From the NCBI GenBank assembly GCA_964016885.1, contig OZ024745.1, positions 80,786,001 through 80,850,000 of the forward strand: DNA of 64,000 nucleotides, given 5' to 3'. The notes below the pieces were generated by a model, which searched no databases, had not been told where the DNA came from, and saw only the letters and a list, made by a program, of their open reading frames with translations. Below are positions 57,538 to 61,122 of this stretch, piece after piece. This DNA is from Eledone cirrhosa (lineage: Eukaryota). Position 1 is the stretch's first letter, and the number at the start of each line of letters is the position of its first letter. The position numbers and the translations under genes are program-made.

Positions 57538-59845
57538 TTATTGTTCATTTAGCTTGGGTTTGAATTTATCAATAAAATTCTTTTCTTTGATTTTTCTCTT
57601 GATTTCACTTGGGCTGTGTAATTTGTAGAATGGGAATATTATAAATATTCCCTGACCACATGTTGCCAGGTGGCCGCTTAGGGGTATCTGACGGACATTT
57701 GGGTCTCTGATTTGTTGACGGTGTACCCGTGCACGTTCCGATAGTGCATTTCCAGTTTGACCGACATATAGTTCTTCACAATTCGGGCATTTAATGCAGT
57801 AAATTAGATTTCTGCTTTTGCAGTTCATATTTGCATTTGGGAATATTTTTCCAGTTTTTGTTTTCATATATTGACCGGCGTGTATGGATTGACATGTGCC
57901 GCATCGATTATCATTGCATTTAGATACAGTGAATGATTGGTCTTTATTGTTAAGGTCAAACTTTGCTTTTGTTAGCAATTGCTTCAAATTTTTTGGCTGT
58001 CTTTTACTAAGAGTCAAAGATCGATCTGTGATTAAGCCTTTTAATTCGTTACTTTTAGCAATGATCGGTAGGTTTGCTTTGGCAGTGTTGAAGATATTCT
58101 GGTGACGTGGGTTGTGTGTCATTATAAATGGTATGACCAGTTCTTGGTTTCTTCTTCCTTGGGTTGTTCTAAGTTGTTGTATAGGTATTTTTATAGCCCG
58201 CTGTATGCCATTTTCTATAAGTAGAGATGGGTATTTTTGTTTGAGCAAAAATTCTCTTAGTTCTGTTAGGCGTTTGTACCTGGTATTCGTATCTTCTACA
58301 ATGGTACAAATTCTTCTGGCTAGGCAGTATGGGATGTATGCGTTTTGTATGAGGTGGATGGCACGACTTAAAATTCAGATATTGATGGGTGTCTGTGTGT
58401 TTATAATATATATCCGTGGTAATGGTGGTGTCGTTTTTGATTATCATTATATCTAGGAATGGTAATTTGGTCCTACTCATCTCTTTTGTGAATTGGAGAG
58501 ATGGGTGTAGGTTATTCAGGAGGATATTGAACTCATCCAGAGTATCTAGAGATTCTGTCCAGATGATGAAACAGTCGTCAAGGTATCTCTTCCAAGATTT
58601 TTCAATGTACTTTCTAAAGTCAGTACTATACTTTTCCTCTATTTCTTGGTAGAGTTGTTGTTCTAAGTATCCCATTACAGAGTTCGCGTAAACGGGAGCA
58701 AACTTCGTTCCCATCGCTGTGCCTCTAATTTGGATGTAATTCTTTCCATTGAAGAAGAAAGTGTTGTTTTCCAGAATAAGTTTAACTGCGTCTAATATAA
58801 ATGGCGCTGTGAATCTAATGGGAATCACTTCTCTATGTTTTTCCACCCAGTATTTAACCGGCTTTATTCCTAAATCATGTGTAATGTTGGTGTAAAGGCT
58901 TACCACATCAAAACTGAGTAGAAGTGAATTCGTTTCCGTGGTTTTGGGAAGATGGGACAGGAAGTCGATATCATCCCGGATGAAACTGGGTATGTGAATA
59001 CATAGTGGTTTCAAAATATTGTCAACAAAATTGCTTAGACGGTGAGTGGGGCATGTTGGACCAGCTATAATAGGTCTAAGTTTTAAGTCTTTTGGGTGTA
59101 GTAATTTAATGTACTCACTGTTTTGTTCTCTTACTGCCAGTTGTATTTCTTTTGACTTGTGAACTTTCGGTAGGCCATACAGGTTGCTGGGTTTCGGCTC
59201 AAAATTGGTGATGTAGTCTCTTTCCTTATCAGTAAATGAGTTGTGGTATTTTGAAGCCAGGTTGTTGATCTTCTTCATGATGTTGTGGTCTATATTTGAC
59301 GGTATTTCATGATAGAATGTTGTGTCTTTCAGTTGTTCCTCAACCAAATCCTTGTAGTATTCAGTATCCATTATAACAACTGCACCCCCTTTATCTGCTT
59401 GTTTAATTATTATTGTTTTATCATTTTGTATACATTTAAGTGCAGACATTTCTGATTTGTTAATGTTTGGCCTAACATTAGTATTATGTCTAAGAGGAAA
59501 TTTAGACAGGATGTCAATGTATTGGTCGAGATAGATATTTCTTCCTTTTGGCGGAGTGAAATTTGATTTATTCTTTACTAGTGATTCATCACTCTCATTA
59601 TTTTTATCAGCGAAGAATTCTACAAGACGTAATTTTCGACAGAATTCTTGGGTATCCTCCTTCAGTTCTTGGTGGTTGACTGTTGGAGTCGGTGTGAATT
59701 TCAGTCCTTTTGACAGAATTTGCATTTCATCATTGTCAAGATCTCTTTTAGATAAATTAATTATTTTAGGATCTACGTGTACAGCTGTTTTGGGTATGTT
59801 TCCTCCTGGAGTTTTTCTTTTTCCGGTTTTTGTTGTCCTGACGTT
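57538..59845 (-). CDS. PLE B ORF2: reverse transcriptase + GIY-YIG endonuclease (entered by predicted -1 frameshift; one lesion near 58330)
   Basis: DPKIINLS..KGLKFTPTP, KQADKGG, YGLPKVHK, SFDVVSLYT, GTAMGT, RYLDD; CNDNRCGTC; NLIYCIKCPNCEELYVGQT. Confidence 0.9.
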
Positions 59846-61122
59846 AAAAAATGAATTTTTCTCTGTTCAGGATTTATATTCCTGTTGGTGTTCGCTTGAT
59901 GAACTTTTGGTCGTGATATTATATTTGGTTTCGTTATGTATTTTGTCCTATTTTTGGTATTCTGTATATTATTTTTCTTCCTGTTAGCATTATTTTTAAC
60001 AATCTGGGGAAATGACCTAGGTTTGCTTTCAGGTTTAGATCGTTTTTTCGTCCAGTTTCTTGTGGGCAATCTCTGTTGAGATCTTGAGAATGATCTGGTT
60101 ATTCTACGTTTTGTTTCCACATTCCTTGTTGGTAGTCTCTGTTGAGATCTTGAGAATGATCTCCTGGTTTTACTACTTCTCATGGTCTGGTCAAAGGAAT
60201 ACCTATCGTGTTTGTGCTTTTTGTTCATGTTGTGTGCGATAGGGTGTTTTTGTAGAAAAAGCGAAGAGTTATTACCGTAGTTCTTCTTTGATTCAAGGTA
60301 AGGTGAGTGTTTGTGTTGGCACGTGTTCTGGCGTATGTTGTGTTGATGAGATTGTCCACTTTTAATGCTTTTTCTCAGGGTTCCAGAGTCTTTACCGTAA
60401 TTTGCAGCATATTCATCGAGAAATAATTGTTTCTGCTGCCATACCTTTCTTGATTTGTTTTCTTCTTTTGAGATATCTCCGATCCATAGTTCTCGTAGTG
60501 TTTCAGCTATAATACCAGTCGTTAGCTTTGAAATTTCAACTTCAATTTGGTCATCAATAGCTTCATATTTGGCTTTGTAGCGGAATTGTTTACATTCAGA
60601 AATGGAGATGTTGGTCCTGAATTTTGTCAATGTAAGTTCCCATCGGAGTTTTGTTTCTTCTTCTGGTTCTCCTGCAATTTCTGTAATTAGGTATTTACGA
60701 GGGAGTATGGGTGCCGTTAGAGAGAGCCATTTCGAATGTGTTTCGACATATTTTTTGCATCTGTATGCTTTCCAGAAATTTTGTTTTCTTATGTTAAGGA
60801 ATTTTTTCCATGTCTTCCACATTTCTTTTCTTATTCGATGTGTTTTGTTTTCCAAATTTCTTTCGTTTATTTCTGACATCCAAGGGAGTTGTGGTAGGCT
60901 TTCTCTTGTATCTTTGATAACTGTTGGTATAATTTCAGCTAAATTCTTAATTTCAGAGTTTATATGTTCAGTTATAAGTTTTCCGTCTGTAGATAATTTT
61001 TCTATTTCCTTTAAAATAGAGGATTGTGTGTCCATCATCGTGATAAGTGTTGATAATTTCGATGATATCTCCTTTAGAATTCTTTCTGATTCTGTTGGTT
61101 TCATTTGTTGCTTTCCAGACAT
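59773..61122 (-). CDS. PLE B ORF1, 449 aa, helical N-half and basic repeat-rich C-half; function unknown
   Basis: Uninterrupted ATG-TAG ORF between 5' pLTR and RT; homologue in PLE A. Confidence 0.85.
   Translation of the reverse strand: MSGKQQMKPTESERILKEISSKLSTLITMMDTQSSILKEIEKLSTDGKLITEHINSEIKNLAEIIPTVIKDTRESLPQLPWMSEINERNLENKTHRIRKEMWKTWKKFLNIRKQNFWKAYRCKKYVETHSKWLSLTAPILPRKYLITEIAGEPEEETKLRWELTLTKFRTNISISECKQFRYKAKYEAIDDQIEVEISKLTTGIIAETLRELWIGDISKEENKSRKVWQQKQLFLDEYAANYGKDSGTLRKSIKSGQSHQHNIRQNTCQHKHSPYLESKKNYGNNSSLFLQKHPIAHNMNKKHKHDRYSFDQTMRSSKTRRSFSRSQQRLPTRNVETKRRITRSFSRSQQRLPTRNWTKKRSKPESKPRSFPQIVKNNANRKKNNIQNTKNRTKYITKPNIISRPKVHQANTNRNINPEQRKIHFLTSGQQKPEKEKLQEETYPKQLYT

Follow-up and report, generated by a model that had tools for sequence, protein, structure and literature searches.

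A candidate ORF1 protein family in a Neptune-like clade of Penelope-like elements and its probable coupling to reverse transcriptase by -1 frameshifting

The question raised by the current locus is what a long open reading frame (ORF) encodes ahead of the reverse transcriptase (RT) of a Penelope-like element (PLE), and how an RT frame with no evident start of its own is then translated. The locus lies within a 64,000-nt stretch of Eledone cirrhosa DNA (contig OZ024745.1, positions 80,786,001 to 80,850,000 of the forward strand, hereafter the window and numbered from its first letter), in which the element termed PLE B encodes a 449-aa protein, ORF1, upstream of RT and a C-terminal endonuclease (EN). 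Canonical endonuclease-encoding (EN+) PLEs are given as single-ORF elements in the abstract of PMC8557442 and in excerpts of PMC6515669, whereas PLE B has two overlapping frames, an arrangement conserved across its family. Our comparisons indicate that ORF1 is a real, selected and previously undescribed protein family, which appears to serve as the ORF1 of a Neptune-like PLE clade, and that programmed -1 frameshifting very probably joins it to RT-EN in a gag-pol-like manner. The reading as a whole, i.e. a Neptune-like PLE ORF1, -1 slippage yielding a minority fusion and ORF1p as the majority product coating the element RNA, seems likely to us. A single PLE B element is located between two pseudo-long terminal repeats (pseudo-LTRs; a direct repeat of 433 nt with 95% identity) and consists of ORF1 followed by RT-EN in the -1 frame:

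61144-61576, minus strand: 5' pseudo-LTR, 95% identical to 56945-57368 and adjoining a (TA)n-rich tract
59773-61122, minus strand: ORF1, 449 aa, intact, with its ATG at 61122 and its stop at 59775-59773
59845-59851, minus strand: heptamer U_UUU_UUA, read as H424-F425-L426 in ORF1 and as F-F in the RT frame; the likely -1 site
58169-59866, minus strand, -1 to ORF1: RT frame, Pfam RVT_1, with YLDD at 58585
57538-58374, minus strand: thumb, CX4CXXC linker (57918-57892) and C-terminal GIY-YIG endonuclease (Pfam GIY-YIG, E 1e-6)
56945-57368, minus strand: 3' pseudo-LTR, the partner direct repeat of 61144-61576, adjoining (TA)n

ORF1 lies at the position given by an earlier sequence-only reading of this DNA. 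By its PLE-type RT followed by a GIY-YIG domain with CCHH (a Cys pair between LIY and YVG, with His residues downstream), PLE B is a C-terminal EN+ Penelope-like element. Its linker, CNDNRCGTC, lies 23 residues ahead of the GIY cysteine, compared to 25 in Neptune-1_Ac and ~7 in Nematis_C4 as given in an extract of Craig 2021 (Fig. S2); from this spacing the element appears to be Neptune-like, the RT tree described below containing no named Neptune references.

The ORF1 and RT frames overlap by 94 nt (59866-59773), with RT in the -1 register. The open part of the RT frame starts within ORF1 at 59866, five codons ahead of the heptamer, and contains no ATG ahead of its IINLS motif. PLE A, a second and decayed element in the window, has the identical heptamer at 50981-50975, and U_UUU_UUA is also the -1 frameshift heptamer of HIV-1 gag-pol. 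The same junction recurs in two further samples. Firstly, an exhaustive protein search with residues 60-260 recovered 378 ORF1 clusters (50% identity) at E<=1e-3, of which 124 reach E<=1e-10. A word-indexed search had yielded one homologue among 193 candidates. The ORF1 homologue counts given here are from the best 150 of the 378 clusters, 78 of which are 330-500 aa in length, and the homologues, like the loci discussed below, are mutually related, such that the counts are not independent. In 68 of the 78, Phe-Leu occurs at a distance of 8-45 residues from the C-terminus. Three windows placed further upstream contain it in 2, 6 and 7 of the 78, and 1000 shuffles averaged 2.8 (maximum 10). Phe-Phe occupies the junction position in just 2. 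Residues with no U-ending codon (K, E, Q, M or W) constitute 22% of the tail, yet none of the 68 has one ahead of the Phe. Only 3 of the best 150 exceed 500 aa, namely a chimeric Mytilus model, a Mytilus model joining ORF1 to RT right after HFL and a longer-ended ORF1, and none is a full in-frame ORF1-RT-EN protein.

Secondly, genomic loci were fetched through RT and therefore blind to ORF1, since the ORF1 alignment is too variable for fetching. This provided 134 loci, or 136 sequences including PLE A and PLE B (viral contigs searched by RT gave no loci), of which 75 gave a hit to the RT N-terminus; in 8 of these it is accompanied by an ORF1-core hit, the one in L002 being weak and at a contig edge. 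At all eight, the heptamer is in the -1 register (U_UUU_UUA in seven, U_UUU_UUG in one), an RT-frame stop is located 0-12 codons upstream of it and no RT-frame ATG precedes I[IFY]N[LM]S. In an RT tree built with FastTree, which left out L004 and L007 as too short and included no named reference elements, the placeable ORF1-bearing elements, those of the window among them, form one long-branch clade with support of 1.0. Other members of this clade have U_UUU_UUG (L015), A_AAA_AAC (L010) or C_AAA_AAC (L017) in the same register, the two sister loci with A_AAA_AAC or C_AAA_AAC being truncated; thus, the letters vary between clade members, while the X_XXY_YYZ pattern itself stays. These comparisons show that both the heptamer and its register have been retained throughout the family, and that the RT frame lacks its own start ahead of the first conserved motif.

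It is scarcely credible, and largely refuted already, that PLE B is a single-ORF element whose offset reflects chance homopolymer mutation of dead copies. Both copies in the window do carry other breaks, and Craig 2021 (PMC8557442) describes frameshift-prone A-rich blocks in Naiads. However, the offset and heptamer are identical at 8/8 loci, FL is found in 68/78 homologues and RT-frame stops lie just upstream. The behavior of a genuine break is also different. PLE B carries a single extra base near 58338, which breaks its RT frame. In contigs of four public runs (three studies) mapped on the element, this base is missing from all contig depth in three runs and from 99% in the fourth, so the break is peculiar to the PLE B copy. 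The contigs of the same four runs list no indel at the junction and only 3- and 6-nt insertions in the tail, whereas the real break at 58338 was exposed.

Several observations weigh against programmed frameshifting and the reading built upon it. FL is absent from the tested window in 10 of the 78 homologues, while ORF1 is broken upstream at 3 of the 8 loci (L004, L076 and PLE A), where the register was taken from the local frame. That no indel is listed at the junction applies to 12 of the 18 indel rows, and rare variants drop out of contigs. No stimulatory structure is evident 3' of the PLE B heptamer (z +0.5), and a crude scan for H-type pseudoknots 3' of the heptamers found nothing above shuffles; a 3' hairpin at z<=-1.6 is present at 3/8 ORF1 loci (L002, L008 and L076). 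A G-starting codon follows FL in 47 of the 68 homologues, which makes many of the sites U6-AG and splice-acceptor-like, and in 59 of 120 RT homologues the called start codon precedes INLS, at scattered distances. Lastly, the dN/dS comparison suggested by the sequence-only reading speaks for selection on both proteins (0.12 for ORF1 and 0.08 for RT between L001 and L007), but at a dS of 2.5, which is near saturation.

Two of these observations bear on other routes to RT-EN. If the U-run were a 3' splice site, an intron extending from the pseudo-LTR to U6-AG would remove ORF1 and yield a separate RT-EN message. Besides the frequent G after FL, 6/8 ORF1 loci read UUUUUUAG, and spliceosomal introns occur in PLEs according to portions of PMC8557442 and PMC4209133. 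Nevertheless, PLE B reads UUUUUUAC and L076 reads UUUUUUGU, both without AG, the G is missing from 21/68 homologues, and A_AAA_AAC and G_GGU_UUU sites (the latter from another lineage, see below) lie in the same register without AG. Moreover, an acceptor needs no fixed ORF1 phase, yet FL exceeds FF by 68 to 2, and we therefore consider splicing very unlikely. Still more improbable is that RT-EN arises by reinitiation or from a non-AUG codon downstream of the ORF1 stop, or that the polymerase slips on the T-run. Termination-reinitiation, rather than frameshifting, gives rise to L1 ORF2, and many called RT proteins start shortly ahead of INLS, but those starts vary in position and 0/8 loci have an RT-frame ATG before INLS. 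Likewise, the heptamer varies within the X_XXY_YYZ pattern, and six T in a row make a short tract for polymerase slippage.

The identity of ORF1 itself was approached through its second copy, which is found in the following remnants:

50975-51987, minus strand: PLE A ORF1 remnant with stops and frameshifts, its 5' end lost at a TA tract; ends H-F-L
48700-51002, minus strand: PLE A RT-EN remnant in several frames, with CX4CXXC linker; the lower bound is approximate

An alignment of the two ORF1 copies had been made by eye, and it proves to be far beyond chance: tblastn within the window gives 85.7 bits (E 2e-20, A 51987-51154), pairwise BLASTP with the A piece (51735-51217) finds 28% identity in an alignment of 159 aa (E 4e-18), and a profile of 108 family members with A left out scores A at 140 bits. 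The four motifs quoted for the pair, W..(F/K)L..RK...W, LP(R/K)K..I..I..EPE...KLR, D.Q...EISK...G and LW......EE..S...W..K, are present in both copies. As also reported there, RSFSRSQQRLPTRN occurs twice in the B tail (residues 321 and 343), and repeated QNRR units are found in A, two in number and in a shifted frame because copy A is broken. The alignment of the 108 members contains nearly invariant residues at W105, R112, P141, K143, E152, D190, W213, E221 and S224. That no domain could be recognized agrees with the database searches, in which B ORF1 matched no Pfam family at E<0.05 and no PHROG; across the 108 members, Pfam returned 11 families, each matched by a single member and all of them coiled-coil noise. 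The term unannotated suits the sequence family, but not the architecture, as a coiled-coil ORF1 before RT and a frameshift have already been described for some PLEs.

Named RT and ORF1 homologues are from bivalves (Mytilus, Saccostrea, Ylistrum, Solemya) or their symbiont assemblies, and for the 15 ORF1 homologue clusters looked up besides one control (20 in all), the named members were bivalve-associated only. The expected co-occurrence with a PLE RT holds, with ORF1 directly upstream wherever DNA was available, and on the same grounds capture of a host gene was considered and rejected. PLE RTs and one ORF1 are also encountered in assemblies labelled bacterial (L076-L134; P0153, P0164, P0188, P0256), which are likely host DNA in symbiont bins. 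Four loci (L001, L057, L067 and L083) contain ORF1 twice, as in partial tandem insertions.

The predicted anatomy of ORF1 is as follows:

60994-61080, minus strand: N-terminal heptad, residues 15-43, predicted coiled coil
60972-60907, minus strand: second amphipathic helix, residues 51-72, following the heptad
60403-60885, minus strand: conserved helical core, residues 80-240, with helices at 102-134, 154-200 and 204-240 and a P-R-K turn at 141-143
59851-60375, minus strand: basic low-complexity tail, ~residues 250-424, with the duplicated RSFSRSQQRLPTRN unit, predicted to be disordered

The sequence-only reading had proposed a helical, coiled-coil protein, and several results favor this. A four-heptad a/d pattern across residues 16-40 is kept in the family, the hydrophobic fraction at positions 16, 19, 23, 26, 30, 33, 37 and 40 being 0.84-0.99 among aligned members; the N-terminus of the ORF1 profile matches designed coiled coils (best E 7e-4); and an AlphaFold2 model is all helix from residues 81-240, with a predicted local distance difference test score (pLDDT) of 93-98 per block that falls mostly below 50 past ~residue 270. 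A homodimer prediction of residues 5-250 scored 0.02, the fold of the chain being itself uncertain and the alignment not used. The tail has a net charge of +39 in B and is positive in 76 of the 78 full-length homologues (median +13 over 145 aa). Foldseek against the PDB gave no match at E<=1e-3, a BFVD search gave two rows at E ~1e-3 with a TM score of 0.1, VIA gave a best Z of 9.0 at rmsd ~6 to generic helical bundles, and an Atlas feature search reached 0.78 at best, its hit to the L1 RNA recognition motif (RRM) cluster, at 0.77, being within chance. The fold searches listed only generic helical bundles, and none shows a new fold.

Comparisons with Gag and with L1 ORF1p, both of which had been invoked from the sequence, fared differently. 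The parallel with Gag is now stronger than first proposed, as the junction of ORF1 with RT-EN is a conserved -1 slippery site. PLE B shares with retroviral and LTR-element gag-pol the heptamer, its register, a short overlap and the order of a structural-type ORF followed by enzymes. It differs in having no CCHC knuckle, no protease, no matched capsid fold and no clear 3' stimulator in this copy, as well as a telomerase-related RT, PLEs being the sister group of telomerase. In B ORF1 there is no CCHC zinc knuckle, zf-CCHC is found in none of the 108 members, and Cys accounts for 0.2% of homologue tails. L1 ORF1p consists of a coiled coil, an RRM and a C-terminal domain (CTD). With it B ORF1 shares N-terminal heptads, a basic character and a position upstream of the RT/EN frame, whereas its model has helices but no strands and hence no RRM, and no RRM or CTD family was found by Pfam among the 108 members. 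Accordingly, the comparison with L1 ORF1p stands as an analogy but no further. By analogy, B ORF1 would work like Gag/Gag-Pol while being neither Gag nor L1 ORF1p. Oligomerization and RNA binding would be expected because of the predicted coiled coil, the helical core and the basic disordered tail, and ORF1p is, somewhat more probably than otherwise, an oligomeric RNA-binding scaffold.

Based upon these features, the following sequence of events can be proposed. Most ribosomes would stop 23 codons past the heptamer and release the 449-aa ORF1p, while a few would shift -1 at F425-L426 and continue N-V-R-T into RT, generating a fusion of ~1,190 aa. A majority of ORF1p with a minority of ORF1-RT-EN fusion is the outcome that the conserved junction makes highly probable. 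The excess ORF1p would then oligomerize through its predicted coiled coil, coat the element RNA with its basic tail and build a ribonucleoprotein. The rarer fusion would be recruited to this particle by way of the coiled coil and core that both proteins have, in order to carry out target-primed reverse transcription at (TA)n sites. Scaffolding and recruitment are modeled upon Gag/Gag-Pol and L1 ORF1p, and we view them as reasonable and modestly favored.

It is conceivable, though unlikely, that the frameshift is real and ORF1p is nonetheless not a packaging scaffold. In this scenario, the core would be an accessory N-terminal domain of RT involved in template or target binding, and free ORF1p would be a by-product limiting RT-EN output, or a repressor. 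Such a role is suggested by a three-helix N-terminal PLE domain, for which we coined the label 'PKGL', which is found in 10 frameshifted upstream frames and also in frame with RT at 5 other PLE loci, the two groups being homologous (E 3e-7). The layout of its model is nearly that of the ORF1 core, with helices around the proline turn of 30, 47 and 34 residues compared to 33, 47 and 37, and the Poseidon N-terminus is termed a putative nucleic-acid-binding domain in the consulted part of PMC11167929. On the other hand, although hhalign pairs the PRK of the core with the PKG of 'PKGL', the profile-profile score is weak (E 0.02-0.17) and 1 of 40 block shuffles scored equally high. Furthermore, nearly all members have the conserved heptad and a basic tail of ~145 aa, as would suit a structural protein produced in excess. 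The ORF1 core may be a diverged version of an N-terminal ('PKGL') domain common among PLEs, which we offer as a lead only.

Other PLE lineages exhibit related junctions. At 12 other RT loci, 10 of them from one assembly, an upstream frame is in the -1 arrangement with G_GGU_UUU. Seven loci (L051, L057, L058, L064, L065, L068 and L074) represent a second lineage, in which ORF1 ends at G_GGU_UUU ~270-410 nt before the RT anchor, and in most of this lineage a similar hairpin, GAC-(A)GGC...GC-A-GUC, follows within a few bases. In L066 (1941-3869), a 643-aa upstream ORF ends H-F-L at U_UUU_UUA in the -1 register before a distant PLE RT; its motifs are esterase-like, presumably of SGNH type, and Pfam gave no hit. 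Members of the L019-L033 group (such as L022, L025, L027 and L030) have upstream ORFs of 460-715 aa with RG-rich tails, whose overlap with the RT frame, in either frame, is only 20-34 nt; no heptamer was found there, and another coupling such as reinitiation is possibly used. A much wider reading, which we hold very tentatively, would be that EN+ PLEs widely employ a gag-pol strategy, an ancient three-helix ORF1 domain of an undescribed family being overproduced as an oligomer or particle that coats RNA, and being either in frame with RT or uncoupled from it by frameshifting. Its corollary is similarly doubtful, namely that lineages set their -1 sites independently (U_UUU_UUA/G, A_AAA_AAC, G_GGU_UUU) and that such proteins are the missing PLE equivalent of Gag.

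When PLE B is compared to described PLEs, the frameshifted coiled-coil ORF1 architecture has precedent. The Neptune clade, as presented in parts of PMC8557442, shares with PLE B an RT followed by a C-terminal GIY-YIG with CCHH and a CX2-5CXXC linker, as well as pseudo-LTRs, a hammerhead-like motif and (TA)n flanks, whereas the PLE B clade has a separate ORF1 of ~400 aa ahead of RT in a -1 arrangement; Neptune is paraphyletic in that study. The legend of Fig. 1 in Craig 2021 (PMC8557442) describes a PLE ORF1 separable by a frameshift with pseudoknot and uses CC for coiled-coil, while an excerpt of PMC13159263 places an ORF1 with coil and disordered regions ahead of RT in Coprina-1_Alen. Like these Athena/Terminon and Coprina elements, PLE B has a coiled-coil ORF1 before RT (a prediction in PLE B). 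They are telomeric and lack an endonuclease, whereas PLE B has GIY-YIG and TA flanks; the likeness is one of architecture. The PLE type drawn with the frameshifted ORF1 is reportedly Athena, and no pseudoknot such as that of the Athena-type legend is evident at the PLE B junction. Other upstream ORFs have been noted in the text of several reports: esterases for Neptune-like PLEs of fish and molluscs (PMC5408684), an ORF1 with a Gag-like knuckle in Chlamys-2/5_cBra and a 420-nt ORF1 without matches in killifish Neptune (PMC12602865). Their domains are different from that of B ORF1 or unknown, and no slippery site is reported for them in those texts. The literature searched describes no slippery site for an EN+ PLE, though key PLE papers outside that search may bear on this point.

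Such a clade has practical consequences as well. With hundreds of families that combine a defined ORF1 domain with a fixed slippery site, the ratio of ORF1p to RT becomes directly testable, as does the existence of a PLE equivalent of Gag or ORF1p. Annotation is also affected, as gene callers cut RTs short or span the two frames by an intron that is likely false (Mytilus model VDH91710.1). One ORF1 at least has been filed as a bacterial protein (WP_179117649.1). If the heptamer is a true -1 site, it would add animal-genome cases of -1 recoding outside LTR elements.

The window as a whole is animal DNA rich in repeats, among them long (TA)n tracts and several remnants of long interspersed nuclear elements (LINEs). 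The pseudo-LTRs contain two further features:

61326-61365, minus strand: minimal type I hammerhead-like motif (UGAAC-CUGAAGA-stem II-GAAA-palindromic GUAC-GUUCA), read by eye against the description in PMC4209133
~57166-57127, minus strand: second hammerhead-like copy with an altered stem II, read by eye

A minimal hammerhead motif of PLE pseudo-LTRs is described in the portion of PMC4209133 consulted, while Rfam over 47500-62000 gave no hammerhead and TA-repeat noise only. Among the mapped contigs, summed depth over the pseudo-LTR (61099-61372) is ~100-fold that over ORF1 in run X1 and ~10-fold in X6, hinting at many short hammerhead-bearing derivatives, although depth is not copy number. 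Contig depth drops steadily from the endonuclease end to ORF1 (57537-61098) in 4/4 runs, the pattern expected of 5' truncation. Downstream of the PLE A endonuclease, two similar copies of ~300 nt at 48070-48600 are perhaps the terminal repeat of PLE A. Lastly, near-identical segments are duplicated at 53468-53850 and 54470-54860 and at 55070-55580 and 62770-63290, the latter pair corresponding to the 3' terminus of an RTE-like LINE; both pairs are either recent copies or assembly duplication.

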